A stretch of 64,000 bases of DNA. It comes from a virus. Lineage: Duplodnaviria > Caudoviricetes. The notes below the pieces were generated by a model that was not told the origin of the DNA, made no database searches, and worked only from the letters and a program-made list of their open reading frames with translations. The DNA lies in IMG/VR virus record IMGVR_UViG_3300037484_000435, positions 96,001 to 160,000 of that record; one strand, 5' to 3'. Position numbers and translations under genes: made by a program. Below are positions 1,460 through 59,729 of the stretch, piece by piece; within the stretch, counting starts at the first letter, position 1; each line of letters starts with the position of its first letter.

Positions 1460-1773
1460 ATTCAAAGGAACGGTGGATAGTGGGGGCTATAGAAGCAATA
1501 TTATTTATCATAATAATATCGTTTGTAATCACTATCAACCAAAAGGTGAATCAAGTAATAACCGCCCAACAAAAATTAGATAAACAATTATCTGTCCTTT
1601 CACCGCTATTGGAAGATTCCTCTATGTCAAGTGTTAATAACTTGGCTCTAAGACGGATGATAAATTCATTAAACTCTATAGAGCGGTTCGTAAGAACTAC
1701 TCCATTAGTAGAATGCGGAAACTGGAATGATAGACAACAACAAAAAAGAGCTGTTCTCGAAAACAGTAAGTAA
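1456..1773 (+). CDS. membrane-anchored coiled-coil protein
   Basis: N-terminal hydrophobic stretch WIVGAIEAILFIIIISFVITI; ATG overlaps the upstream stop. Confidence 0.6.
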   Translation: MNSKERWIVGAIEAILFIIIISFVITINQKVNQVITAQQKLDKQLSVLSPLLEDSSMSSVNNLALRRMINSLNSIERFVRTTPLVECGNWNDRQQQKRAVLENSK

Positions 1774-2806
1774 TTACTCAACCATCCACATCTTTATGCA
1801 CGATCAGCCCGCCCCTGACCCAGACTCGATTGGATCGGCAGTTGGATTATCCAAGTTGCTTAAAGATGTTTTCCAGAAAAAAGTCATTATTCATGGTATA
1901 CCTACGGACCACCGTATGAATACAAAGATGGTATCCGAGCTTGATATAACTCTACTAGACCCTAGGGACAAAGAATCGATGAGCACGTTGGTTGACAACG
2001 ATGACCACGGTTTTATGCTGGTAGACTGCACCCTTAAATCAGGTTCATTCCACTTCACTGAACACTTGGGGGATAAGAAACCGCTCTGGATATTGGACCA
2101 CCACCCCAACAAAGAAGAATCGGAAACCGCAACCTTGGATTTACAGGCTGTGGGCTCATGTGCAACCATCGTGACGGAATACCTCCGTGCCTTCGATGTC
2201 GCATTCGATTCTGAAAACAAAAACGATCGTAATGTTGCGACCGCCCTGATGTTAGGCTTGATGGTGGACACAGATAACCTCCGAAGCGAGGATGTAGATG
2301 TAAAGCGGGACGTTGACACCTTTATCTACTTGAGGTCACATTACAACCTAGACCTGTTTAACAGCATCATGAAATACGATATACCTCGTTACTTCAACGA
2401 CGCTTTGCAGGCTACCAACCGAGAAAAGAACCAACAAGTAACTGAACCCTATGCTATTCTGACTCCCGGCTTCCTGAAAGAGGAGCGGTTAGGAGTCTTG
2501 TCTTTCATAGCAGATTACTGGATTCGGGTTGAGCGGATAAACATTGTGGTTGCGTTCGCCATCTCTGGCAACGAAATCATAGCATCCATACGTACCAAAA
2601 CAGGAACCAAAGCGTCTGACTTAGTCAAACCTCTTTTTCCTACGGGTCGTGGAGGGGGCAAAAAGTTTGCATCTAGGGCCATGTGCACAGTCAATGGTAT
2701 GTTTGACGTGGGCCTGTTGGATGAAGCTGGAAAAGAAGCCCTCTTGGTTCTGACAATGACCACACTAGTAGCTCGTATGAAAATATTCTTAGACGCAGAT
2801 GAGTAG
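1727..2806 (+). CDS. DHH/DHHA1 family phosphoesterase (NrnA-like)
   Basis: Motifs PDPDSIGSA, MLVDC, ILDHH, GLMVDTDNL; C-terminal SIRT...GRGGGK resembles DHHA1. Confidence 0.85.
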   Translation: MIDNNKKELFSKTVSNYSTIHIFMHDQPAPDPDSIGSAVGLSKLLKDVFQKKVIIHGIPTDHRMNTKMVSELDITLLDPRDKESMSTLVDNDDHGFMLVDCTLKSGSFHFTEHLGDKKPLWILDHHPNKEESETATLDLQAVGSCATIVTEYLRAFDVAFDSENKNDRNVATALMLGLMVDTDNLRSEDVDVKRDVDTFIYLRSHYNLDLFNSIMKYDIPRYFNDALQATNREKNQQVTEPYAILTPGFLKEERLGVLSFIADYWIRVERINIVVAFAISGNEIIASIRTKTGTKASDLVKPLFPTGRGGGKKFASRAMCTVNGMFDVGLLDEAGKEALLVLTMTTLVARMKIFLDADE

Positions 2807-4441: not shown

Positions 4442-4825
4442 ATTACTGAACATGATATAATAGCGATCGACCTCGCAACGCAGATCGCACAAAATAGTGA
4501 CTACAGGCAAAGACATGGAGCCGTACTTTACAAGAGGAGTAAGATAATTAGTGTAGGGTTTAATAGACTGAAGACTCACCCTAAGGCATTGCCTTTTTAT
4601 AAATATCCGTTTATCCATGCGGAGATGGACACTATAATACGAGCCCCAGAAAATGAAATTTTGGGTGCTAGTCTTGCTTGCGTCAGGATTAACAGGAGCG
4701 AGGACATCAGGCACTCCCATCCCTGCCCAGAATGTATGCGGATGATGCGTTACTATGGGATAGCTTACATAGTATACTCTACCCAAGACGGAATAGAGAA
4801 AGAATTCCTAAGAACAAAACAATGA
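4442..4825 (+). CDS. zinc-dependent cytidine/dCMP deaminase-like protein (start uncertain)
   Basis: HGAVL...IISVGFN...IHAEMD...PCPECM (HxE/PCxxC). The frame is open from 4436 with no ATG/GTG/TTG before 4589, so an ATT/ATA start is assumed. Confidence 0.75.
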   Translation: MTEHDIIAIDLATQIAQNSDYRQRHGAVLYKRSKIISVGFNRLKTHPKALPFYKYPFIHAEMDTIIRAPENEILGASLACVRINRSEDIRHSHPCPECMRMMRYYGIAYIVYSTQDGIEKEFLRTKQ

Positions 4826-5340
4826 AATTTAAAGACATACCCAAGTTCACTCGGTGTGCGAACTACCGTGTTACACAACCGTGGAACTATATGAAAGGTT
4901 GGATTGATAAGAACATCGAGGAGCTGAACCTCGATATGAATCCAGATTTCCAACGTGCTTATGTGTGGACTCCTGAACAGAAATCGAGATATGTGGAATA
5001 CATATTGAAGGGGGGAGTATCTGGAAAAGAAATTTATTTTAACTGCGTGGGATGGATGATGGATTTTCAAGGACCCTTCGTAATTGTAGACGGAAAACAA
5101 AGGGTAAATGCTGTGCTGGAATTTCTAGATAATAAAGTCGCAATATTCGGTAACAACTTTTACCAAGATTTTGAAGATAAACTCGGAACGATGGATGCTT
5201 ATCTTTTGTTTAATGTTAATGACCTCCCTACACGGCGTGAAGTCCTGCAATGGTATCTTGACTTAAATACTGGTGGGACAATACACAGCGAGGACGAATT
5301 GAATAAGGTAAAAAGGTTATTGAAGCAGGAAAAAGTTTAA
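4822..5340 (+). CDS. DUF262 (ParB-like/GmrS-type) domain protein
   Basis: PDFQRAYVW...EQKSRYVEYILKG...IVDGKQR. Confidence 0.85.
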   Translation: MKFKDIPKFTRCANYRVTQPWNYMKGWIDKNIEELNLDMNPDFQRAYVWTPEQKSRYVEYILKGGVSGKEIYFNCVGWMMDFQGPFVIVDGKQRVNAVLEFLDNKVAIFGNNFYQDFEDKLGTMDAYLLFNVNDLPTRREVLQWYLDLNTGGTIHSEDELNKVKRLLKQEKV

Positions 5341-5342
5341 TT

Positions 5343-6701
5343 ATGTCAAAAGTCACAAAATTATCTGGCCCCGACCCAGGGGCATTCGATGAAACAATTA
5401 AATGGAACGTTTTGAGTTGCGGAAATATAGAGGTTAACTCAAATAAATATTACGTAATTGAGATACAACGTAATCGTAATACTGGGGAGCACCGCGTTTA
5501 CACGCAATATGGGAGAATAGGCTCATCTGCCGTGTATGAAATGCGGGGGCCTTATTCAGAGTATGACGCCACAAAAGATTTTGAATCAATTCTTAAGGCG
5601 AAACAACGCGGAAAAACGGGTGGAACTAGCAAGTATGCTATAGTGGATGTGATTACACCCACCGTGGGTTCCTACAATATACGAGGAAAAGCACAAACTA
5701 TAAAGGTAGACAGCTCTAAGGACATGGTGGCCCAGTCAAGCCACAAGTTCACACCAGATGTAATGCGGTTGCTCAACCAATTTGCTGACGAAAACATACA
5801 TAATATTACGTCAACAACTAGCATGTCGTTCACATCGCAAGGACTAGAAACAGCACTAGGACCAGTAACAGAGTCCCATGTGCAAAAGGCCAGAGAAGAA
5901 CTCCAAGCTATCCAAACGATAGTAAAGTCTAATGGTGGTAAAGTTTCGAGTCCCTATCACGATTTTGTGCAGGCTAATAATCGTTACCTAAGCCTGATTC
6001 CACATACCTTTGGGAGAAAAATAACTGAGTCTGATTGGATTGCGGACGACTCTAAATTGATTGAAGAGTTTGATTTGTTGGACCAGTTAGAGGCGGCGGT
6101 CAAGCTAGGCCTAAAATCCAACGCCCCCCAACAGTTCAAAGGATTGGATACAGACATCTTTACTGTTGCGGACCCAAAGCCGTTTATAGAAATGGTTAAC
6201 AAAACCAAAGCTCATACCCACCTCAATAGATGGCAGGTAAAGAATGCTTACGAAATAACTATATCCAAAGAACGTGCTCGCTTTGATGTGAACAGTTCCA
6301 AATACGGAAATTACAAGGATTTCTTCCACGGCTCAACCAACTGTAATTTTCTTTCTATATTATTGGGTGGATTAATCATACCAGGGCACGGCGATGGAAT
6401 CGCAATAGCTGGTAGAATGTTTGGAAATGGAATCTATGGAGCGACAAGCTCAACAAAGTCCCTAAACTATTCCGTAGGAAGTTGGACAGGAAGGAGGAAC
6501 AAATATTCAAACGCGTTTCTTCTGAGAGTTAAATTTGCCATGGGTAAAATCTATGAGCCCACCCGATCTGGGAGTCCACCCTCAGGTTATAATAGTGTGG
6601 CAGCTTATGCAAAGAAAACTGGTTTACAAAACGACGAATTTATTGTTTATAATTTAGAGCAATGCACAATAACGCATCTGCTCGAACTCGAACAGCGATG
6701 A
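5343..6701 (+). CDS. poly(ADP-ribose) polymerase: WGR, helical regulatory and catalytic domains
   Basis: NSNKYYVIE...TQYGRIG (WGR); NRYLSLIPHTFG (regulatory domain); FHGS, GRMFGNGIYGA..STKSLNY and NDEFIVY (H-Y-E triad). Confidence 0.92.
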   Translation: MSKVTKLSGPDPGAFDETIKWNVLSCGNIEVNSNKYYVIEIQRNRNTGEHRVYTQYGRIGSSAVYEMRGPYSEYDATKDFESILKAKQRGKTGGTSKYAIVDVITPTVGSYNIRGKAQTIKVDSSKDMVAQSSHKFTPDVMRLLNQFADENIHNITSTTSMSFTSQGLETALGPVTESHVQKAREELQAIQTIVKSNGGKVSSPYHDFVQANNRYLSLIPHTFGRKITESDWIADDSKLIEEFDLLDQLEAAVKLGLKSNAPQQFKGLDTDIFTVADPKPFIEMVNKTKAHTHLNRWQVKNAYEITISKERARFDVNSSKYGNYKDFFHGSTNCNFLSILLGGLIIPGHGDGIAIAGRMFGNGIYGATSSTKSLNYSVGSWTGRRNKYSNAFLLRVKFAMGKIYEPTRSGSPPSGYNSVAAYAKKTGLQNDEFIVYNLEQCTITHLLELEQR

Positions 6702-6907
6702 GGCTAGAAAGGACAGATAAAATGAAACCTGTGGAAGTCTATTGTTGTGGAGAAGTCATCTCTTGCACCGACGCAGTTAACGTATGCGATACATGCGGGG
6801 CTGAGTATGACATTGAGGGTGACAAAATAACTAACAAAAAACTTTGGACTAATACTAACATAGACGATCTGTGCGACTCAACAGACGTAATCATAGTAAA
6901 CGAATAA
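6698..6907 (+). CDS. small Cys-rich zinc-binding protein
   Basis: VYCCGEVISC...NVCDTCGAEY; similar to the next ORF. Confidence 0.6.
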   Translation: MRLERTDKMKPVEVYCCGEVISCTDAVNVCDTCGAEYDIEGDKITNKKLWTNTNIDDLCDSTDVIIVNE

Positions 6908-7170
6908 TGAGGCTTCCGATGAGTAGAGTAATTCAATATGGCTCCAGTGTTGTAGATGAACATGGGGTCTTACAAAAGAAATATACTGTAGTTGAATGTT
7001 GTGGTGATGAACTTTATTGTTATGGATTTACAAACACGTGCCCAATTTGTGGTGCTGATTATAACCAAGCAGGACAACGACTAGCACCAAGAGAACAGTG
7101 GGGCGAAGAAACAGGTGAGCATTATACAGATATACTCAACATGCGTGAACCGTGGGATGACAATTATTGA
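6907..7170 (+). CDS. small Cys-rich zinc-binding protein
   Basis: VECCGDELYC...NTCPICGADY; TAATG coupling to the upstream gene. Confidence 0.65.
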   Translation: MRLPMSRVIQYGSSVVDEHGVLQKKYTVVECCGDELYCYGFTNTCPICGADYNQAGQRLAPREQWGEETGEHYTDILNMREPWDDNY

Positions 7171-7333
7171 GGAAGACAAGAAACTTGAGATAGATTGGGA
7201 AGGGGCATTTGATGAAGCTGTGACTCTATTCGTACAAAAGGGAGGACTGATTGATACTCTTAGACTTGAGGAAGTTAGAGCCGAACTAATCGCCCGCCAC
7301 ACCCATTACGTCGATATTGTGGACACACAATGA
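7157..7333 (+). CDS. hypothetical protein
   Basis: MTIIEEDKK..., overlaps both neighbours. Confidence 0.45.
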   Translation: MTIIEEDKKLEIDWEGAFDEAVTLFVQKGGLIDTLRLEEVRAELIARHTHYVDIVDTQ

Positions 7334-8016
7334 TAACCACCAATAAAAATCCTAACATGATTACTGCTTGTGAGGCGGCTGAAAGCTACGCACAAATGAA
7401 GAAAGCGGATTATATGTTTTCACTCATTGATTATTTAGTAAGTGGTCTTAGTTCCTGTAGTCATGAATTAATCATACCACCTAATATATTTGGAGTGTAC
7501 AGGTGTGTAAAATGTGGGTTGCGATTTTCCCTCCGTTCACTCCGAGAAAGAAACAGAAGAGAGGTTTCAAAACAAATGTGTACAGTAGATGAAGAAAGAA
7601 TCATAAAGATGAAAGTGGAGGAGTTCCTCCAACAAGGTAAGATGTTTACCTCAGTCGACATTGCAAACGAAATAAAATTATCAGGGACGTGGATTCGTAA
7701 CCGCGACGTTGCAGGCTACTTGAGGGGCAATGCTATGAGTCTCGCCCGTATGCTCATGATGGTGTATAGACAAACCCTAATTCCTGTTACATTGGACGAT
7801 GGGACAGTGTCTGAAACTTATTTGTACCACCCGATACAGACAGATGCCAGTGAATACACCACTACAAACCAGCGAGCTTTAGACCCGCTCACCGCTAACC
7901 ACCCGAGATCGGCATCGATACACATACAAGCTGCCCCACCAGTGGTATCAAACCCAACACCTGTGGATACTACACCGAGTTTCGATATCAATCCTTGGCG
8001 AGTAGCTAGTGTCTGA
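7330..8016 (+). CDS. hypothetical protein
   Basis: 228-aa ORF with CVKC and a Pro-rich tail. Confidence 0.6.
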   Translation: MITTNKNPNMITACEAAESYAQMKKADYMFSLIDYLVSGLSSCSHELIIPPNIFGVYRCVKCGLRFSLRSLRERNRREVSKQMCTVDEERIIKMKVEEFLQQGKMFTSVDIANEIKLSGTWIRNRDVAGYLRGNAMSLARMLMMVYRQTLIPVTLDDGTVSETYLYHPIQTDASEYTTTNQRALDPLTANHPRSASIHIQAAPPVVSNPTPVDTTPSFDINPWRVASV

Positions 8017-8426: not shown

Positions 8427-8432
8427 TAATTG

Positions 8433-9704
8433 ATGGTACAACAAGCGTTTGATTTTGAAAAATTTGCTATCAGAGATGTGAAATTAACCCAAGAAATCAA
8501 AGAAGGAACTTACCCAATTAATCAAGCGACAGTTATTTCTGTCAGTGCCCTAGAAGATATAAAAGACCTATTACGTTCTAAACTTTTGGACAATACAGTT
8601 TGGGGTGCCGAGCCTATCTCTGAAAAATCCCTTAGGGGCCTGATGGATGAAATAGGAACTGAATGGACAACCAAACAAGGGAATTGGCCCAAGCGTTTCG
8701 CTAAGGTCTTTAAATACCGAAGAAGCCAGAAGTTCGATAATGACTTTCTCTCGCGGGTTGGAAAAATAGCGAGAGAATCATGTATTATGTCCACTGGTAA
8801 GGAACTAGTGGTTTCGAAAGACTTCGATTGGAGTCCGGGGGACTACGGTGACTACGACTCGTGCTTCTGGAGATGCAGGTCTGGAGCCAAGAAGATACTT
8901 AGAGACGCTCGTGCATTTGCACTGCTGATCCACGGAGAAGACGAGAACCCGTTAGGCAGAGCATGGTGTGTGCCCTATAAGTCTTATTACGTAGTGTTTA
9001 ATGCTTACGCACGAGGCGGGGAATCGATTACTATTGTAACCTTCGCCAGAATAGTGTCGGATATATTCAATTTTCCCTACTACAGGAACGTCCGACTTAC
9101 ATGCCGAGGAATGACTGAGGGACCTCTCTGGATAAATAACGGGAAAGGCTATGTTGTAGGACCACAAGAGGTAGCAGACCTAGATGATGTCAATTTAGAG
9201 CACGCTCTGTACTGTTCGAGCTGTGACGAAGAGTGTTGTTACGAAGCCCACCTTGAAGACGACAGAGTGTTTTGCGAGAACTGCTATTCAGGGTCTAACG
9301 TGTGTGAGTGTTGCGATCGACGCATACACGATGACGACACTTATTGGGTACATGACACAGCTATTTGTGGAAATTGTGCGGACAATGATGCCGAGCGTTG
9401 TTATGAGTGCGAGAACCTAGAGTGGAACGACAACATCACCTACTACAGAGATGAGGCTTATTGCGAACGTTGTGTAGATAGAAAATTTGTTACGTGCGAT
9501 AAATGTAAAGAATTGGTACATCAAAAGGACACATTTAGCCTCAGAGACGGGTATTGCTACTGTGATGATTGTGTAGATGAACACACTTTCATTTGTAAAG
9601 AGTGCGGATACAGGTTTTCCAATCTAGAGGACCACGAAGAGGGAATGTGCTGGACGTGCTACCGCAAGCAACATCCAGAGGCAACCTCTCAGCTAGCTGT
9701 GTAA
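8433..9704 (+). CDS. uncharacterised phage domain fused to about five tandem zinc ribbons
   Basis: DYGDYDSCFW...GRAW in the N-terminal half; ten CxxC motifs in the C-terminal third. Confidence 0.75.
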   Translation: MVQQAFDFEKFAIRDVKLTQEIKEGTYPINQATVISVSALEDIKDLLRSKLLDNTVWGAEPISEKSLRGLMDEIGTEWTTKQGNWPKRFAKVFKYRRSQKFDNDFLSRVGKIARESCIMSTGKELVVSKDFDWSPGDYGDYDSCFWRCRSGAKKILRDARAFALLIHGEDENPLGRAWCVPYKSYYVVFNAYARGGESITIVTFARIVSDIFNFPYYRNVRLTCRGMTEGPLWINNGKGYVVGPQEVADLDDVNLEHALYCSSCDEECCYEAHLEDDRVFCENCYSGSNVCECCDRRIHDDDTYWVHDTAICGNCADNDAERCYECENLEWNDNITYYRDEAYCERCVDRKFVTCDKCKELVHQKDTFSLRDGYCYCDDCVDEHTFICKECGYRFSNLEDHEEGMCWTCYRKQHPEATSQLAV

Positions 9705-21509: not shown

Positions 21510-21852
21510 GTTGGCTTTAGAAAATAAGGAAGAAATCTTGATCTGCCCTAAATGTGGTGCCCCCTTGGCTGGGTCCTATATGGTGCAGACATTTGCAAAT
21601 CACATGACTATAGATAAATACCAACGTATAGGGTTTGCCAATAGGGAGGGGCCACTTGACGCCGACATAGATGAGAGTGAGCTCTACGACTTGCTGTGTT
21701 ACAAATCCAAGTGTAATTGGTCACTAAGAAAGGAGCTGGGCGACTCGCTACCTAGCATCTATGATAAACGTAGCCTGCCTAAAGAGGCGATACTAGAACG
21801 GATAGTATTACCTATGAGGAAAGAGCAAGATGATCTGTCAAACGAAAGTTAA
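21490..21852 (+). CDS. zinc-ribbon protein
   Basis: LICPKCGAP...LLCYKSKC. Confidence 0.55.
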   Translation: MLDYLDKLALENKEEILICPKCGAPLAGSYMVQTFANHMTIDKYQRIGFANREGPLDADIDESELYDLLCYKSKCNWSLRKELGDSLPSIYDKRSLPKEAILERIVLPMRKEQDDLSNES

Positions 21853-22126
21853 ATTTGTATGCCCCAGTTGCGGGGGCACTACTCTGAGAGAAGAGCGCGC
21901 TGTTAGAGTGTTCTCCTACATAACAGGTATTGAGAGTAGCACAGATTTTGAATACCGCCCCATAAGAGATGGAGATGTAGATTGGGAGAACTCTACTTGG
22001 ATAACAACAGAGTGTGCAAACTGTCACAGACCTCTCCGAGGCACAGATGAGGATATGATTAAATGGTTAAAAGAGCAAGGAATGCTCGTGGAACCCGCAG
22101 GAGATGGACAAGATGCCCCTTCTTAA
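21830..22126 (+). CDS. zinc-ribbon protein, paralog family member F
   Basis: VKFVCPSC...TECANC...EDMIKWLKEQGML. Confidence 0.75.
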   Translation: MICQTKVKFVCPSCGGTTLREERAVRVFSYITGIESSTDFEYRPIRDGDVDWENSTWITTECANCHRPLRGTDEDMIKWLKEQGMLVEPAGDGQDAPS

Positions 22127-25054: not shown

Positions 25055-28143
<3,089 letters not shown>

Positions 28144-31880: not shown

Positions 31881-32093
31881 CTAGACATTAAGTGATTCTC
31901 TGTATATAACCTTACATCCGTAATATTCAGATAATTTATCCAGAACTTCTGACATAGCCACACTAAAATCTTTATGTGAGGCTTGTGTTTTAGTCACGCG
32001 GTGTTTTATTACTACGTGGTCCTCCCCTCCGCTTACTGGGGTGTCCTGTATCATGAATTCCTTCTTCGTTAGTATTATTTTTCTTTGTCCCAT
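31881..32093 (-). CDS. small hypothetical protein, weakly release-factor-domain-like
   Basis: GAGGG RBS; LTKKEFMIQDTPVSGG...VVIKH; no GGQ. Confidence 0.45.
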   Translation of the reverse strand: MGQRKIILTKKEFMIQDTPVSGGEDHVVIKHRVTKTQASHKDFSVAMSEVLDKLSEYYGCKVIYRESLNV

Positions 32094-34023
32094 TACTACT
32101 TTTACCCTCTTTGAATATAAATTCTCCATCCTTTACTTTAATCTTAATTAGATCCGGTCTATTTTCTTTATCAACATCATCACTCATAATATATTTATTA
32201 CGCAGTATCCACTCAGCTAAAGGTAATTCAAGGCTCTTTTGTACTGCTCTACCTATATTCCTAGCACCATATTCTTCGCTATAACCTTCATCCAAAAGAA
32301 AGTCTTTTACAGAATCGTCCCACGCCATAGTCATATGTTGGGCCTTTTCTAAGTTAATTTTGGTTTTTGAAAGCATAACGTCAGTGATATCACGACACAC
32401 TGCTTTATCCAAACGGTTAAATTGGATAATGCCTGTCAACCTATTCAGAAACTCTGGGCTAAACAATTCTTTAATAGTAGAACTGATGGCTTCGGCTTCC
32501 AATTTAGATTTGTCGTCGCAAAGACCTTCCATCCGAATCCCTATAGGATTTCGGTTACAAATTTCAGCGGCTTCCTTTGTTCCCACATTGGAGGTCATCA
32601 AAATAACCGACTCGTTAAAACGAATGGACTCACCTCTACCACTTGTCACTACACCATCATCCATGATCTGGAGCAATACGTTGAATATGGCTTTATCAGC
32701 CTTCTCTAGCTCATCAAATAAAACAACACAAAACGGATTAGCTTTTACTTTGGCAGCTAGGGTCATGGGTGGTCCTGAATCCTGCCGAGAATCTTCAAAT
32801 CCCACATATCCAGGAGGTGCACCAAAAAGTTTTGATATTTCATGTGCGTGTTGATACTCAGAGCAATCTACTCTAACAAGCTCAACCCCTAATTCATCAG
32901 CGAGTACTTTGGCAAATTCAGTTTTGCCTACGCCAGTAGGGCCCGGTAGTAACCAACTACCCACAGGCTTTTCCTCTCCTCTAAGACCAACCCTAGCAAC
33001 TGCGATAGCATCTACTACTGCGTCAATAGCATGGTCCTGTCCTACAATTCTGGTACCTTTTATTCTATCCTTTAACTCTAATATAGTTTGTGCTGATAGT
33101 GTATTAAACCGCTTCTTTTCAGACTCTACTTCATCACGAGAAGACCTACCTAATGGCCTACCTCTGCCTGGCAATTTTTTACCTTTCAAGATTTTAGCCC
33201 CGTAGTCCCCTCGCCTATCTTCAAAAGGAGACCAGTCTATTAATCCCCAATCCAAACTGGGGTTCACATCTACAACAGCCAAATACAATTGTGTCATCAC
33301 AATCGTTTCTGTGTAAATATTTATATAATTACCCTCGGATAACGCCGTAAATAATTCCTGTATTTTGGGGACGGTGGCTGCGATAACATGTGCTTTCCAT
33401 TGTGCAATATTAGCTTTTGCCACCTCCACGTCATTGTCGCATCTACGTTCCACGTAATCCTGCACGACGCGATCTGGTGATACATTTACGGAATCAATTT
33501 GTAGAATCGGCACCTCTAAATTCAACGAGTTTATATGTTTCTTGATATAATCTCGTTCTGGGTACTTCCGTTTTATCTCGTCCCACGCTTGACTAACTAC
33601 TGACTGGGCGGGAGCAGGATTAAAAAGGGCATTAAATTCTACCGATGTTATCCACCCAGGATTAGCGGGTAACGCGATTGTGCCCGGCAAACCATTTCTG
33701 AGTGCGTCAGACTGATCCATTACTTTTTCTCCCACAATAACTAAATACTGCGGGCGTAGTCTATTGTTAAGTTTATAGACTGTATCTATTAGTTGCCCCC
33801 TAAAGATATCGTGATCCCGTTTATTTAATTTTGATTGAACAGCCTTCAATTGGGCGGAGTCTTTTACTAAGGAATGAATCAAAAATTTCTCATACTCTAC
33901 TTGGCTTATAATTCCTCCAGCAACAGATAACTTGGATAAAAATAGGGAGGTGTCATCGCTGGGAATGACACCAACCTCCAAACGTAAACTGTAATCATCG
34001 AAATCAATTGGTTTATACATCAT
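31990..34023 (-). CDS. ClpA/ClpB-like AAA+ ATPase (second module only) with a novel N-terminal domain
   Basis: IVGQDHAI, GPTGVGKT, DCSEY, GAPPGYVG, FDELEKA, TSNVG, PEFLNR, GARNI. Confidence 0.92.
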   Translation of the reverse strand: MMYKPIDFDDYSLRLEVGVIPSDDTSLFLSKLSVAGGIISQVEYEKFLIHSLVKDSAQLKAVQSKLNKRDHDIFRGQLIDTVYKLNNRLRPQYLVIVGEKVMDQSDALRNGLPGTIALPANPGWITSVEFNALFNPAPAQSVVSQAWDEIKRKYPERDYIKKHINSLNLEVPILQIDSVNVSPDRVVQDYVERRCDNDVEVAKANIAQWKAHVIAATVPKIQELFTALSEGNYINIYTETIVMTQLYLAVVDVNPSLDWGLIDWSPFEDRRGDYGAKILKGKKLPGRGRPLGRSSRDEVESEKKRFNTLSAQTILELKDRIKGTRIVGQDHAIDAVVDAIAVARVGLRGEEKPVGSWLLPGPTGVGKTEFAKVLADELGVELVRVDCSEYQHAHEISKLFGAPPGYVGFEDSRQDSGPPMTLAAKVKANPFCVVLFDELEKADKAIFNVLLQIMDDGVVTSGRGESIRFNESVILMTSNVGTKEAAEICNRNPIGIRMEGLCDDKSKLEAEAISSTIKELFSPEFLNRLTGIIQFNRLDKAVCRDITDVMLSKTKINLEKAQHMTMAWDDSVKDFLLDEGYSEEYGARNIGRAVQKSLELPLAEWILRNKYIMSDDVDKENRPDLIKIKVKDGEFIFKEGKSSNGTKKNNTNEEGIHDTGHPSKRRGGPRSNKTPRD

Positions 34024-34033
34024 AATACTCTGT

Positions 34034-35065
34034 TTATTGTACTCCTTGTACAGTATTCCTCATATACTCTAAAACCCGCACAGCTTGGGCAGAAGTAAGC
34101 TCCTCTACAGCCTGTAGCGTTTGTGCTTCCGCACCCAGTACCTGCCTAACTAATAGCATTGGATCGGCGTTCGGCCCAAATGCCATCGTCGCGGCTCCCC
34201 TAATTGCACTTATCTGGTGAGACACAATACCAGCACCGGCTGTACCCTGTTGCATCTGGCCCATAGGTGGTGCCATTGGTTGCTGTGCTGGGTACTGTCC
34301 AGAGGGTGGACCCTGCGGGATACTCTGTATTGGCATTTGTGTTGTCGCTGGCGTACCAGGACCATTTGTATATCCTACATTTGGATTAGTCATCTGCGGC
34401 ACAGGTCCCAATGGCTGCTGCTGTTGCTGCGGCGGTGGACCCTGTGGAGGCATCTGCATACCCATATTAGGATTTGGGTTAGGATTAGCCATCTGTGGGG
34501 GAGGCATCATAGTTGACTGTACTCCCTGCGGGGGCATATTATGTGGACCTGGATTAACCACATTAACATTCATCTGTGGTGGTGGGGGCCCAAACTGACT
34601 CGGCCCTTCCCAAGGTGGTGATTCTCCGTCGTCCAAACCGCTCACATTCTCGCTACTCACTCCCCAGAGATGCAAACCAACACCAAACAGTGATGCTGCT
34701 TTTGTAAGGGCTTTAGAAAAAGCACTTTTCATACTGTCTCCAGGGTCATTGCCTATCGCGTGTCCACCCCAACCATCTCTAATAGCAGTTTTTCCTGTAT
34801 CGGGATCCGGTACTTCGAGACGTACCCTTTTAACGACAAAGTTATTAATTACCATTGACTCAACTTCAGTAACACTCCAAGAACAACCGAAAACCTCATT
34901 AAGTCTATTGATTACTTCTGAAGAAGCAACGAAAGACCATTTCTGTCCAGCCCGTCCCTGACGAGTTTCTATCTTATCTGGTGGAAAAGGTTCATATAGT
35001 CCCTTTATTACCTGTTGCATTTTTGGTGTGAGCGTTGCTTCCGTACTTGTTTTTTTCGTAGCCAT
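34034..35065 (-). CDS. Rad52/Rad22-family ssDNA-annealing protein with a Pro/Gln-rich tail
   Basis: EVINRLNEVFG..W...RDGWG...KSAFSKALTKAASLFGVGLHLW. Confidence 0.85.
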   Translation of the reverse strand: MATKKTSTEATLTPKMQQVIKGLYEPFPPDKIETRQGRAGQKWSFVASSEVINRLNEVFGCSWSVTEVESMVINNFVVKRVRLEVPDPDTGKTAIRDGWGGHAIGNDPGDSMKSAFSKALTKAASLFGVGLHLWGVSSENVSGLDDGESPPWEGPSQFGPPPPQMNVNVVNPGPHNMPPQGVQSTMMPPPQMANPNPNPNMGMQMPPQGPPPQQQQQPLGPVPQMTNPNVGYTNGPGTPATTQMPIQSIPQGPPSGQYPAQQPMAPPMGQMQQGTAGAGIVSHQISAIRGAATMAFGPNADPMLLVRQVLGAEAQTLQAVEELTSAQAVRVLEYMRNTVQGVQ

Positions 35066-35118
35066 GTATTACCTCTCCTTTTGTATACGAGCCTTTTATT
35101 GACCTGCTCAGGTCTTAC

Positions 35119-35178
35119 CTAACACCCGCCTTTGCAGTGGGTTACTGGTCTCAACATATAACGTTTTCTACTAACCAT
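35119..35178 (-). CDS. 19-aa peptide MVSRKRYMLRPVTHCKGGC
   Basis: AGGAGG RBS 8 nt upstream of the ATG; occupies an intergenic gap. Confidence 0.5.
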   Translation of the reverse strand: MVSRKRYMLRPVTHCKGGC

Positions 35179-54472: not shown

Positions 54473-56401
54473 TTATCCTACCATAACTGTTAACTCGGGC
54501 TCCTTAGAGAGTTTCATAGCTAAAATGTCTTCCGAACTAAATTCACAAGCATTGCCCGAGCATGCTAATGTTTGTCCGCCTGTCGTGTTATCTCGGTTAT
54601 TCTCATAATAAGCTAATCGAGAAAAATCAATTTCAGGTAATTCCGCTACCATAGCTTCGTACCGTTCTTTCGTTATCTCTTCATAAGGAGCTAACTCGTA
54701 GCGAGAGTTATCGTATGGAAAAAATGAGACCCCGTTAATACAATCAAAGTTATCATACACAAACTTTGTTACATCCAACCACTCATTTTCTTTTACATAA
54801 ATAGTACAACTGACATTATGCTCTGCCCAGTTCTCTACCAGTAGCTTATACCACTCTAGCTGTTTTAAAGCTTCGTCATCGCGTGTTGTTTTACATCCCT
54901 CAGGGGACTTCATTGGAAATTCTAAAATGTAAGTATCATTATTTTCTGGGGCTTTCATAGCCTTAAACCCTTGGTCTAACAACATTCGTAATAGAGGGTC
55001 GTGACCACTTATTCTGACACGACGAATAAAATACTCTGCCCAACGAGAATGCATACCTGAAGAACAATCGACCATCTGGGATACTGTGCCACTAGGTTTA
55101 ATGGTGGTTACCGCTGCAGGTACAGCTATTTCCATAATCTCCGCAGCCTGTTTAGCAACTCGCACCGCGTGACGTTTCCACATACGTAGTACTTCAGGCG
55201 TTGCCAATTTCAAATTATCAGCTAGCCCTGTTAGAGAAACACCTAGTAGTCTTTCTTCTTCTGCATTCGTTTTCCACTGTGGACGTAAGTGGGGAAACTC
55301 AGTAAAACAGGACTGTATAATACCCAACCATACAGCCGTTGTAATTTTATCCCGCACACTGTCTTCGTCATCAGTAGGTCGGATTACTACCTCTGTGAGA
55401 TTACATAGTCCCATGTTCCGTAGAACTATTTCAGCACAAGGGTTTGCACCCGCCAGCAAGGATTTCAATCTTCGTTTGGGAGCCATCTTCTTGGCAGCAA
55501 AGAGATTGAATAACCCTCTTTCCCCGCTACCAGATTTAGCCATATCAATAAATTCCTGAGCAAAGGTCAAAACGTCAGGCTTCTTACTATACACCGCACT
55601 AATATTAGCCATATAGCGTCGAGGATGAAACTCTCCGTGTTTAGAACGTTTCATCAAGTCATCGCTGACGTCACTGAGAGCAATCTGAGACGACCTTCTT
55701 ACTCCTCCAACGACTATTGCGTTCGCAATCTCATTCATGACATCAGAAGCTTCTAAGGTCGTTAACTTGCGCTCCTGTGCTTTGAGTACTGTATCCCTCA
55801 TATACTCTAAACATCTACGAAGGGGCTCAGGTCCCGACGCGTAACCACCAGATATTTTTAGAGGGGTACCCGCCGGTCTCACATCAGTGTAATCAAAGTC
55901 AACATCTCTTCCGTTGAACCATGCCTTTACCCCGAAGTCGACTGATTTCTTCCAACCTTCTCGACTATCAGGTATCTTGAAATATAAGCGTGGTTGATTC
56001 TTTTGCTTTTGTATAGTTGGTAATTCGTTTACATACTGTGCTTCAACTGAATACCCAACACCACAACCACATGCCAAGAGATAGAGGGATTCTCCGAAAG
56101 CCTCTATACTATCGACAGCTAAAAAACTACAATTATAAAATACAGCGTTGTCTCTCTGAGCATTAATACCCGCACTCCACAACGCTCTCATAGAGGGCAT
56201 GACATTTAATGTCTTAATATAATGCTCCGCTTTTCGTCTTACCTTCAATGGGATTTTTTCAGCACGTATCACGTTAGTAAATACAAAATCCAGATATCTG
56301 TTAACCGTTTCTTCCCAAGTTTCTCTGCGACCCGCATCTGGCAACCAACGTGCATAAGTCCGATAAAAAATAAATTCCTGATAGGGTGTCCACATACTCA
56401 T
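54473..56401 (-). CDS. nrdJ: class II (B12-dependent) ribonucleotide reductase, monomeric RTPR type
   Basis: RTYAR...ETW.E, PSMRAL, NCSF, GGVRRS, NPCAE, CNLTE, KPSGT; GGAGG RBS. Confidence 0.95.
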   Translation of the reverse strand: MSMWTPYQEFIFYRTYARWLPDAGRRETWEETVNRYLDFVFTNVIRAEKIPLKVRRKAEHYIKTLNVMPSMRALWSAGINAQRDNAVFYNCSFLAVDSIEAFGESLYLLACGCGVGYSVEAQYVNELPTIQKQKNQPRLYFKIPDSREGWKKSVDFGVKAWFNGRDVDFDYTDVRPAGTPLKISGGYASGPEPLRRCLEYMRDTVLKAQERKLTTLEASDVMNEIANAIVVGGVRRSSQIALSDVSDDLMKRSKHGEFHPRRYMANISAVYSKKPDVLTFAQEFIDMAKSGSGERGLFNLFAAKKMAPKRRLKSLLAGANPCAEIVLRNMGLCNLTEVVIRPTDDEDSVRDKITTAVWLGIIQSCFTEFPHLRPQWKTNAEEERLLGVSLTGLADNLKLATPEVLRMWKRHAVRVAKQAAEIMEIAVPAAVTTIKPSGTVSQMVDCSSGMHSRWAEYFIRRVRISGHDPLLRMLLDQGFKAMKAPENNDTYILEFPMKSPEGCKTTRDDEALKQLEWYKLLVENWAEHNVSCTIYVKENEWLDVTKFVYDNFDCINGVSFFPYDNSRYELAPYEEITKERYEAMVAELPEIDFSRLAYYENNRDNTTGGQTLACSGNACEFSSEDILAMKLSKEPELTVMVG

Positions 56402-56414
56402 AAATCCTCCATAA

Positions 56415-56813
56415 TTACTTCTCTGTGCTCTTTCTTTTTTTATACTCTCGCTTCTGTCTCCATTCCGCTCTATACTTGCCACCGAATACTTCCCTAAAGA
56501 TGTAATTCAATTGTTCGAGGATTTCCGTATGTTTACATGATTTACATGCTTGGTCCTCACTTAACCCGTACTTACCAAATTTTTTGGCTAAGCATGTCCC
56601 TTGCCCTACAAAGCAACCTGTTATACATCGACCAGATATCTCTCTCGGCATCCTTTGGGCCAACAAAGCAATATGATCGTCACTAATACACTCTATAACT
56701 GCGTTTGCTTCGAGTGCAGTTAGAGGGTTTTCTTCTTCCAAAATGCAAAGTACCTTTTTTGTACCTTCCATTTTTAAACGTTGTATTGATTTTTTCCTAG
56801 TTTCTTTTTCCAT
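56415..56813 (-). CDS. hypothetical Cys-containing protein
   Basis: 132-aa ORF. Confidence 0.5.
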   Translation of the reverse strand: MEKETRKKSIQRLKMEGTKKVLCILEEENPLTALEANAVIECISDDHIALLAQRMPREISGRCITGCFVGQGTCLAKKFGKYGLSEDQACKSCKHTEILEQLNYIFREVFGGKYRAEWRQKREYKKRKSTEK

Positions 56814-57818: not shown

Positions 57819-59729
57819 CTAATGGACCCAATAGGGCCCAAATTTTGCATCCACTTTACACGGACACACACTCGCAGGAATCATATCATAAAATGCCCGC
57901 GTCATTCCACCAACTAAAATTTCTTTAGCTTCCTGAACTACTTCTTTCTTCACCATTGTTTGTATCTCATCATGCACAACGGCCCATACATAGGCATTAC
58001 TATTGCCAAATCTGTTGTTTAATCCCTCATAAACATATTTGAGGGCCAATTTAGTCATTGAGGCTGACGAACCTTGAATTGTATGATTCACGGCCTGTCT
58101 TCTTACACCTGCTTTTATCTTCTCATAATCAGGGTCTGAGTTCGGGGGTAAGTTATAATATCTACGCCTACCCATTAAGGTCAAACTAAAACCCTTCTCC
58201 ACCGCCTTGTTACCTTCGACATCAATATAACGCTTCAAAGCGGGGTAAAACTTGAAGAAGCCCTGAATAACTGTCTTGGCTTCATCCTCAGGTATGTTAG
58301 CTACTTGAGCCAATCTTTTATAACTTCCACCGTAGGAGGTTAAGAAGTTAGCAGACTTACAAATACCACGTAGCCTTTTCCATTTTTCTTCTTCTTCTGT
58401 TATCTCGCTAAACCTTTGTTCATCTTGTTTCCTGTCTAAGGATTTCAAGATAGACCTCAGCTTATCCTTGTCAATTCCATATACCCGACACGTGGTGTTA
58501 TTATGTATATCCTCATTATTACGGAAGGCTTCCTGCATATTAACCTCATTACTGAGGTAGGATAACACCCGCAATTCCTGCCCGCCAAAGTCAGCTCCTA
58601 GACATACATAGCCTTCTGGAGCAACAAACCCGCGTCGATATTTACCCAAAGCGGGAATGTTCTGCATATTTGGGTCTTCAGATGCAAAACGTCCTGTTGA
58701 GGTTGAGCACTGTTTAAAACTAGCGTGCATACGACCAGTAACTCTGTTGATTCTGGCCAGCATCTTCTCACCGTAAGAGGTAAAAAACTTTCTTAGTTCT
58801 CGGTATTCCAATAGAGGTTCAATTATTGGGTGTGAACCACTAATCTTTTCCAAGATGTCCGCTCCAGTTGATTCTACATTGAGGCCTAAATCTCTCAAGG
58901 CTGGCCCCAATTGTGCGGGGCTGTCTACAGAAATCCCACAGAAATTATCAAAGACCGATTTCTGTTTCTCTAGGGGTTTGAGGTAGGCGTTTATAATGAT
59001 ACGTAACTCATTAAGTCTTTCCTCAGTTTCCTGTAAAAGTTTTCGCCAATGCTCCAAATCCAAATCAACACCGTGATATTCCATCATGGCCACAGCAGGT
59101 ATAATATCAAATTCTAACTGTGATACTGGTATGAGGCCATCTTGTTGTAACTTAAATAGTTGGCCCCAGTAGATGGGCTGTAGAACATGCACATCTCTTG
59201 CAGAATACTGTAGCTGTTCTTCTGAAAAACCTGTCCGAACATACCCTGAGTAAAAACCTTTCCTCAGAGCTTTATTCATATCTTTCGTTGTAAACTTAGT
59301 GTATTTGGGGGCCACAACATCCAACTTCTGGTAACCGTTGGTAGGAAAATCTTTACCAGCACCCAAGATTTTCTCGCTAATCATAGTATCATACAGATTA
59401 ACGAGTTCAATCCCTGTCGAAGCTTTTATAATCTTGAAATCAAACCCGATGTTATGGCCTATTTTTAAACAATCCTTTTTGCTACAAATGTCCTTTAGCA
59501 ACCTATAAACTGGGGAGGTTGTATCCCTCCGTAAAATTGCGTTCTCTACCGTACAGTCAATCACCACATTACTCTGGCCATTTGAAAACTGCCAAAGCAA
59601 TAATTCTGCTGTGTGTGGGTCCAAACCTGTTGTTTCTGTATCTGTTCCAATTAAAGGGGCTCTAACAAATTCATGCAGAGCCCCGAGTATATCCTCATCC
59701 GTTTTCACGTATGTATACGGTAATTCCAT
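57819..59729 (-). CDS. polA: family A DNA polymerase (3'-5' exonuclease plus polymerase, no 5' nuclease)
   Basis: DTET, HNIGFD, YS.RD, TGR..S..PN.QNIP, ADF...ELR, R...K..NF...YG, VHDE. Confidence 0.95.
   Translation of the reverse strand: MELPYTYVKTDEDILGALHEFVRAPLIGTDTETTGLDPHTAELLLWQFSNGQSNVVIDCTVENAILRRDTTSPVYRLLKDICSKKDCLKIGHNIGFDFKIIKASTGIELVNLYDTMISEKILGAGKDFPTNGYQKLDVVAPKYTKFTTKDMNKALRKGFYSGYVRTGFSEEQLQYSARDVHVLQPIYWGQLFKLQQDGLIPVSQLEFDIIPAVAMMEYHGVDLDLEHWRKLLQETEERLNELRIIINAYLKPLEKQKSVFDNFCGISVDSPAQLGPALRDLGLNVESTGADILEKISGSHPIIEPLLEYRELRKFFTSYGEKMLARINRVTGRMHASFKQCSTSTGRFASEDPNMQNIPALGKYRRGFVAPEGYVCLGADFGGQELRVLSYLSNEVNMQEAFRNNEDIHNNTTCRVYGIDKDKLRSILKSLDRKQDEQRFSEITEEEEKWKRLRGICKSANFLTSYGGSYKRLAQVANIPEDEAKTVIQGFFKFYPALKRYIDVEGNKAVEKGFSLTLMGRRRYYNLPPNSDPDYEKIKAGVRRQAVNHTIQGSSASMTKLALKYVYEGLNNRFGNSNAYVWAVVHDEIQTMVKKEVVQEAKEILVGGMTRAFYDMIPASVCPCKVDAKFGPYWVH

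Follow-up and report, generated by a model that had tools for sequence, protein, structure and literature searches.

The DNA analysed here (the window) is a stretch of 64,000 nucleotides, bases 96001-160000 of the 545,322-bp IMG/VR record IMGVR_UViG_3300037484_000435 (Duplodnaviria; Caudoviricetes), which CheckV rates as complete. Near its start it carries a gene for a poly(ADP-ribose) polymerase (PARP). The open reading frame (ORF, P0001) begins with ATG, is intact and specifies 452 aa; its start codon at 5343 follows the end of the upstream ORF at 5340 with a gap of 2 nt. The protein is a minimal form of the DNA-dependent PARPs (clade 1, PARP1/2/3-type). It consists of a WGR domain, a helical, autoinhibitory domain (HD, PARP_reg in Pfam) and the ADP-ribosyltransferase (ART) catalytic domain. 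About 630 nt past the PARP gene, on the same strand, begins a gene for a winged-helix protein, which is termed the partner below. The coordinates of all features are collected in Table 1.

All three domains are recognized by Pfam above the respective cut-offs: WGR, residues 27-89, with 43.8 bits (cut-off 22), PARP_reg, residues 137-250, with 41 bits (26.8), and the PARP catalytic domain, residues 283-423 plus the C-terminal strand, with 67.2 bits (26.7). The order WGR, PARP_reg, PARP is canonical, with PARP_reg immediately ahead of the ART domain. When all PDB sequences were searched with phmmer, only PARPs were among the matches, led by PARP1 WGR-HD-ART (E ~4e-13), PARP2 (1e-11) and PARP3 (2e-7) and followed by PARP4 and the tankyrases. 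The motifs were compared in the alignments with the PARP1 WGR-CAT constructs 4opx, 7s6h and 4dqy (E ~4e-13). Y56-G57-R58 of the phage protein falls on W-G-R of PARP1. In the HD, NRYLSLIPHTFG of the phage PARP aligns on NRFYTLIPHDFG of PARP1, and the stretch EEFDLLDQLE aligns with a helix region of the PARP1 HD. In the catalytic domain FHGS, GNGIY, TKSLNY and NDEFIVY are matched by LWHGS, GKGIYFA, SKSANY and YNEYIVY; K372 and E432 are the equivalents of K903 and E988 in PARP1. The motifs YGR, NRYLSLIPH, FHGS, GIYGA, TKSLNY and NDEFIVY are located at positions 56, 213, 328, 363, 371 and 430. A first-pass annotation of this DNA had claimed the PARP1/2/3-like WGR-helical-catalytic architecture, had quoted these motifs, and had pointed to the Lys and Glu equivalents of PARP1. 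In view of the three Pfam domains and the full-length matches in sequence and fold these claims hold: every quoted motif is present and aligned with its PARP1 counterpart.

An AlphaFold2 model built on 87 relatives has a predicted local distance difference test (pLDDT) value of 86.3 and a predicted template-modelling score of 0.80. Disorder is limited to the linker between WGR and HD (residues 119-132) and to a loop beside the NAD+ site (350-356). In the model the WGR domain is a beta-sheet with a helix at 73-89, and pLDDT is ~82-97 across residues 1-90. The HD has helices at 138-158, 177-196, 206-218 and 236-254. With Foldseek the whole model aligns to DNA-break-bound WGR-HD-ART chains of PARP1 and PARP2 over ~490-500 columns (E 1e-28 to 1e-25).

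Human PARP2, PARP3 and the WGR-HD-ART part of PARP1 thus match the phage protein full-length, with alignment of the HD motifs as well as of the catalytic H, Y, K and E. Identity, however, is ~20% only. The phage protein has a very short N-terminus and starts with the WGR fold; the zinc fingers (Zn1-3) and the BRCT domain of PARP1 were not found, nor any further Pfam domain. Compared with PARP1, ~20 residues are missing ahead of the strand with the catalytic Glu, where the alignment breaks. Further, the linker between WGR and HD has its own invariant residues, P106, G109, S110 and N112, which set it apart from the human proteins.

Conservation was examined in 120 relatives with 40-85% identity. 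H329, Y365, K372, Y376 and E432 of the catalytic domain are invariant in 120 of 120, and so are G57 and R58 of the WGR motif and L187, P220 and L246 of the HD; Y56 is kept in 112. Since the sensor and regulatory residues are as invariant as those of the catalytic site, one can conclude that purifying selection has acted on both parts. On these grounds the protein is predicted to be, almost certainly, a functional ADP-ribosyltransferase. The H-Y-E triad is needed for polymerisation but is insufficient: PARP3 and PARP4 carry the triad, yet are mono-transferases. Therefore, whether chains or single ADP-ribose units are attached is not readable from the sequence.

Among the closest known proteins are two from bacteria. 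HaPARP from Herpetosiphon aurantiacus and CdPARP from Clostridioides difficile CD160 have in common with the phage PARP the size class of 47-52 kDa, the order WGR-PARP_reg-PARP_cat, the H-Y-E triad and a WGR motif that begins with Tyr instead of Trp. Both show DNA-dependent poly(ADP-ribose) automodification in vitro (PMC5966428, PMC8120803). The YGR variant singled out in the first-pass annotation is indeed present at position 56; it is no peculiarity, as the first position of the motif is mostly Tyr in bacterial PARPs (PMC5966428). In contrast to HaPARP and CdPARP, the protein presented here is phage-encoded, its genome has no PARG, and its neighbour is the winged-helix protein.

Relatives are numerous. 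A word-indexed search yielded 289, nearly all of which have these three domains and a length of 440-490 aa; many of them sit on contigs of 200-658 kb. An exhaustive search of representatives at 50% identity gave 2174 clusters at E <=1e-3 and 205 at E <=1e-30, and in a pattern scan of IMG/VR PARP relatives were confirmed on at least 99 viral contigs. Full-length homologues (93-96% query coverage), labelled poly(ADP-ribose) polymerase or ADP-ribosylation in GenBank, are encoded by seven cultured phages whose hosts are Klebsiella, Xanthomonas and Stenotrophomonas: XacN1 ORF414 (BBA65562.1), Xoo-sp13, Klebsiella 05F01, FBKp34, KP13-16, Stenotrophomonas CM1 and RAS14. The homologues are only 28-31% identical to the window's PARP; the cellular relatives found are 22-31% identical. 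Near-identical DNA was searched for in the phage collection, with no match to the locus. In the literature viral PARPs were described "in few jumbo phages (e.g., BBA65562.1)" with the proposal that they attach chains of ADP-ribose to proteins of the host (Iyer et al., 2021, PMC7824862); the example given is XacN1 ORF414, which was recovered here. The PART (PARP) family was listed among the most frequent viral ART families (Iyer et al., 2022, PMC9503650), and PARP1-like genes were mentioned for NAD-jumbo phages (Sun et al., 2024, PMC11662467). The initial view that bacterial and phage PARPs of this type are rare was thus overstated. The phage PARP is a divergent representative of an already catalogued enzyme family, not a new type. 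One relative of 756 aa with a LAGLIDADG domain (P0024) was considered as an intein-bearing PARP. Because its extra 290 residues are N-terminal this was rejected; the protein is either fused to a homing endonuclease or the product of a merged gene call.

The partner emerged when ORFs were called in 80 viral PARP loci of IMG/VR with 6-kb flanks and the neighbours were clustered by BLAST. Starting from PARP-bearing loci in this manner, the partner family was found in 40 of the 80 and in the window; the next family occurred in 19. A hidden Markov model (HMM) of the partner core raised the count to 50 of 80. In all 51 HMM matches, the window included, the partner shares the strand of PARP and lies downstream of it; the gap has a median of 602 nt and is within 100 nt in 17 cases. 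The matches cover 21 of 28 PARP lineages (at 50% identity). Among PARP-bearing contigs of at least 200 kb, 25 of 30 carry the partner, nearly always in one copy, and according to the coordinates 23 of these 25 partners follow PARP on its strand at a distance of 20 nt to 11 kb. In the 545-kb genome it is single-copy: the HMM finds no second one even at E 10. In a quick maximum-likelihood tree the window's PARP falls within a well-supported clade of 11 rows, mostly from huge-phage contigs and nearly all partner-bearing, and the midpoint root has partner-bearing PARP lineages on either side. Two cultured phages, 05F01 and XacN1, have no partner HMM match within 5 kb of PARP. The pair is also present in genomes of Armatimonadota, Chthonomonadaceae and Kofleriaceae. 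In the Kofleriaceae locus (L102) the partner starts right after the PARP stop; an apparent fusion of the two was rejected, as its first 530 residues are artefactual, the product of a GC-rich stretch read out of frame.

The partner in the window has a Cys/His-rich N-terminal extension which is lineage-specific and also kept in the closest relative, a core and a disordered tail. The core has no match in Pfam, PHROG or the PDB sequences, and no conserved stretch of 7-10 residues was found in the family. The AlphaFold2 model of the trimmed protein (pLDDT >90 over residues 1-100) has helices at 4-20, 26-35 and 42-59 and a hairpin at 64-72/78-86. Foldseek matches are weak (E 0.01-0.1), yet all are winged-helix proteins (TFIIE-alpha, RTP, PadR). 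By its modelled fold, then, the partner is a winged helix, with no assignment to a sequence family. Many homologues carry a C-terminal domain of the AbrB/MazE type (Pfam MazE_antitoxin 1.7e-5, AbrB-like 3e-4), which the window's partner lacks. Others end in a short motif like W..LF..QPSLFP (loci L067, L072, L077, L081, L082, L084, L085, L087, L088 and L092). This tail resembles the bacterial beta-clamp-binding consensus, QL[SD]LF. For a complex between PARP and the winged-helix core, prediction gave a score of 0.00 without an answer, which counts neither for nor against an interaction. In a relative with 80% identity (L006) a reverse transcriptase of the group II intron type (RVT_N, RVT_1, GIIM; L006:8206-9630) lies ~0.9 kb past PARP. 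This insertion splits PARP from the partner and is absent from the window.

Genes for ligation, ADP-ribose removal and NAD+ supply complete the picture. The first-pass annotation had pointed to LigA as a consumer of the same NAD+ pool, and the gene is present in the window. Within 6 kb of PARP and on the same strand, a polynucleotide ligase is found in 28 of the 80 viral loci and 10 of the 28 lineages: LigA in 14 loci, an ATP-dependent DNA ligase in 7 and a T4 Rnl1-type RNA ligase in 7. Near phage PARPs one also repeatedly finds NADAR (10 loci), metallophosphoesterases and homing endonucleases. The NADAR genes lie 1.5-3.4 kb downstream of PARP and are confined to 2 of the 28 lineages.

An eraser had been reported missing from the window. 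As far as PARG and macrodomains are concerned this is correct, and neither was found in the whole 545-kb genome; elsewhere in the genome, however, there is an ARH3-like ADP-ribosylglycohydrolase. Among solved structures its best relatives are ARH3 (E 9e-17) as against DraG (8e-5). ARH3 is a hydrolase of poly(ADP-ribose) and of serine-linked ADP-ribose. Searching the rest of the genome for NADAR, PARG and macrodomain genes, as that annotation had suggested, brought up two full-length NADAR genes. A strand-run of NadD, PncB-like, glutamine-dependent NadE and NadK genes, interrupted by a TnpB gene of the IS200/IS605 type, is by sequence a phage-encoded Preiss-Handler route to NAD(P)+. The hydrolase, the NADAR genes, the salvage cluster and the winged-helix partner all go beyond the first-pass annotation.

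Among the 30 PARP-bearing huge-phage contigs ARH is present in 14, Macro in 17 and PARG in none. For jumbo phages ~5% with ARG and ~56% with Macro were reported (PMC9503650). ARH looks enriched among PARP-bearing huge phages and Macro does not, with the reservation that the 5% baseline is from a different data set, i.e., cultured phages. The situation in cellular genomes differs. There, a macrodomain protein is encoded directly downstream of PARP in 48 of 75 loci, mostly from Myxococcota and Planctomycetota (loci L106-L168), in line with the known bacterial PARP-PARG and PARP-Macro operons; the phage genome has neither eraser. The cellular pairing of PARP and macrodomain is a writer-eraser pair without counterpart in phage loci generally. 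The cellular macrodomain protein has an acidic, DFDD-rich tail (e.g., L121:7414-8181). On one huge-phage contig (G015, L046) PARP, the winged-helix partner and a Macro gene stand in a row at 32187-35129, and on another (G016, L053) Macro is encoded 4 kb after the partner.

What does such an enzyme do in a phage? With a probability of roughly 60% we read it as an ADP-ribosyltransferase which is activated by DNA breaks and serves replication and repair of a very large phage genome, together with the partner, the ligases, an ARH3-type eraser and phage-made NAD+. The starting points of this reading, i.e., architecture, fold, catalytic residues, gene linkage and the NAD+/ADP-ribose gene set, are computed. 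Activation by breaks we infer from the conservation of WGR and HD and from the biochemistry of HaPARP and CdPARP. The WGR domain would bind a strand break, most likely a nick or break in replicating phage DNA. With the HD loosened by this binding, the NAD+ site would no longer be blocked, and the catalytic domain could then move ADP-ribose from NAD+ onto itself, onto other proteins or onto DNA ends. The winged-helix protein would probably cooperate, either as a recruiter of PARP or as main acceptor. NAD+ would be drawn from the phage salvage cluster and shared with LigA, and the ARH3-like hydrolase would remove the modification. DNA dependence, chain length, targets and role are in this sense extrapolated. 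Several observations weigh against this reading. The searched literature contains no biochemistry on any phage PARP, and no RNA runs with the locus were found among the public runs searched. The associations with ligases and ARH come without a matched PARP-negative control, the 5% baseline for ARH being taken from another, cultured-phage set. Moreover, XacN1 and Klebsiella 05F01, both cultured phages with a PARP, have no ARH gene. Further, several genes often separate the partner from PARP, with gaps up to ~11 kb; the linkage may therefore reflect co-regulation and not a physical partnership.

A more specific proposal is tentative, and we would not bet on it. According to it, PARP and the single-copy winged-helix gene constitute a dedicated two-component module of huge phages for signalling DNA breaks, with the partner as specific acceptor or DNA recruiter, the ARH3-like hydrolase as eraser and the ligases as effectors. 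If true, huge phages would have their own counterpart to the PARP signalling of eukaryotes, assembled from different accessory parts and replacing the PARP-macrodomain pairing of cellular bacteria.

Other roles have to be weighed. The function put forward for phage PARPs in the literature (Iyer et al., 2021, PMC7824862) would make the protein an enzyme of host takeover like T4 Alt, ModA and ModB, attaching longer chains of ADP-ribose to RNA polymerase, translation factors or defence proteins, with the WGR domain merely localising it to DNA. The position of the gene among many small same-strand ORFs without assigned function is reminiscent of early takeover regions. We consider this unlikely: a constitutive effector could dispense with a sensor (G57, R58) and an autoinhibitory HD (L187, L246), yet both are conserved like the catalytic site. 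In addition, the genes that recur around PARP encode ligases, NADAR and a DNA-binding protein and are neither virion nor injection genes. Somewhat less probable still is that DNA itself is the substrate, i.e., that ADP-ribose is placed on terminal phosphates at breaks, capping phage ends and nicks against host exonucleases or marking host DNA, and is taken off by the ARH3-like hydrolase or NADAR. PARP2 and PARP3, whose minimal architecture the phage protein shares, modify DNA termini in vitro, and ARH3 reverses this modification. Both candidate erasers are encoded in the genome, and the NADAR genes downstream of PARP in 10 loci would fit. The latter linkage, however, is seen in only 2 of the 28 lineages, and NADAR is common in large phages anyway (~48%, PMC9503650). 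Nothing in the data separates a DNA acceptor from a protein acceptor, and modification of DNA ends is compatible with a break-activated enzyme of replication and repair.

The AbrB/MazE-type domain at the end of many partners, typical of type II antitoxins, and the occurrence of the same gene pair in Armatimonadota, Chthonomonadaceae and Kofleriaceae bring to mind a conflict module. PARP and an antitoxin-like DNA-binding partner would then operate like a toxin-antitoxin or exclusion system in which damage from a competitor or from host nucleases triggers consumption of NAD+ or a lethal modification. Toxins of the ART family that are paired with DNA-binding antitoxins form an established class (PMC8120803, PMC9503650). 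For the protein at hand this appears improbable. Partner and PARP are hundreds to thousands of bases apart, with other genes between them, unlike the tight operons of toxin-antitoxin systems; the window's own partner has no AbrB domain, and a phage which makes its own NAD+ would be an odd carrier of a suicide module that depletes it. That the gene is an inert or vestigial copy kept by chance is hardly credible. Beyond the fruitless search for expression data nothing specific speaks for it; against it stand the intact frame, the invariance of catalytic and NAD+-site residues in 120 relatives and the confident model.

PARP signalling holds a central place in the DNA repair of eukaryotes and in cancer therapy, and its roles in bacteria and their viruses are almost unexplored. 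The existence of a phage PARP is in itself unsurprising, because comparative genomics already lists the family in large phages. Useful for experiments is the context: a DNA-binding partner, the linkage to nick-sealing ligases, an eraser of the ARH3 type instead of PARG or a macrodomain, and a phage supply of NAD+. The partner, the ligases, the eraser and the NAD+ genes are a concrete set of proteins for reconstitution in vitro. Should the winged-helix protein turn out to be target or recruiter, a substrate pathway would for the first time be defined for a PARP of prokaryotes or viruses.

Table 1. Features of the PARP locus and of the genome which encodes it.
Feature	Position	Strand	Evidence and remarks
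PARP gene, WGR-HD-ART	5343..6701	+	ORF; three Pfam domains; PDB sequence match to PARP1/PARP2; fold match; phrog_23333, E 1.7e-31
WGR domain, ~aa 1-100, Y56-G57-R58 motif	5343..5642	+	Pfam WGR 27-89; AlphaFold2
Helical (autoinhibitory, PARP_reg) domain, ~aa 137-260	5751..6122	+	Pfam PARP_reg 137-250; PARP1 HD alignment; AlphaFold2 helices
ADP-ribosyltransferase catalytic domain, ~aa 261-452 (H329, Y365, K372, Y376, E432)	6123..6698	+	Pfam PARP; PARP1 motif alignment
PARP-linked partner, 228 aa; winged-helix core ~aa 88-190 (nt 7591-7899)	7330..8016	+	Neighbour clustering; core HMM; AlphaFold2
DHH/DHHA1 phosphoesterase (RecJ or nanoRNase type)	1727-2806	+	Head of gene run; syntenic in close relative L006
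Deaminase-like short ORF	4589-4825	+	C-terminal zinc-binding half of cytidine/dCMP deaminase family only; E 1e-4, below cut-off
GmrSD_N/DUF262 (ParB-like) domain-only protein, likely ATG 4822	4732-5340	+	Pfam E 2.7e-12; phrog_1583
Two overlapping small ORFs, 81 and 99 aa	6662-6907, 6871-7170	+	Between PARP and partner; shared CCG..C ... C..CGA.Y layout
424-aa protein, C-terminal half very Cys-rich (many CxxC pairs)	8430-9704	+	No Pfam or PHROG match
NAD+-dependent ligase LigA	25899..27932		phrog_3869, E 2e-197
ADP-ribosylglycohydrolase, ARH3-like	G000:C1:204071-204751 (L010:1399-2199)	-	~44 kb past window end
Two full-length NADAR genes	G000:C1:429536-429952 and 21522-21911		E ~1e-29 each; far from PARP
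NadD / TnpB / PncB-like / glutamine-dependent NadE / NadK strand-run	G000:C1:492626-500161 (L188)

The sole public run which contains the locus is a sediment metagenome. The first ~30 kb of the window are one block of genes on the + strand. Upstream of PARP are the DHH phosphoesterase, a family of small zinc-ribbon ORFs, the deaminase-like fragment, which is perhaps a truncated gene or has a start that was not recognised, and the GmrSD_N/DUF262 gene. The latter was considered as a functional partner of PARP and rejected: the adjacency is seen only in the relative with 80% identity, is missing in relatives at 60% and 42% identity, and does not form a recurrent neighbour cluster. Downstream of PARP follow two small Cys-rich ORFs, which look like paralogous zinc-ribbon proteins by their sequences and have no family match, then the partner and, further on, LigA. 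No terminator-like site was found on the + strand between 4300 and 8600, so that co-transcription of the gene run around PARP is plausible; a promoter scan of the locus gave nothing above shuffled sequences. At ~30000 strand and sign of the GC skew flip. The minus-strand half of the window encodes a Lon-like protease (31990-34023), a ribonucleotide reductase (54473-56482) and a family A DNA polymerase (57819-59729).

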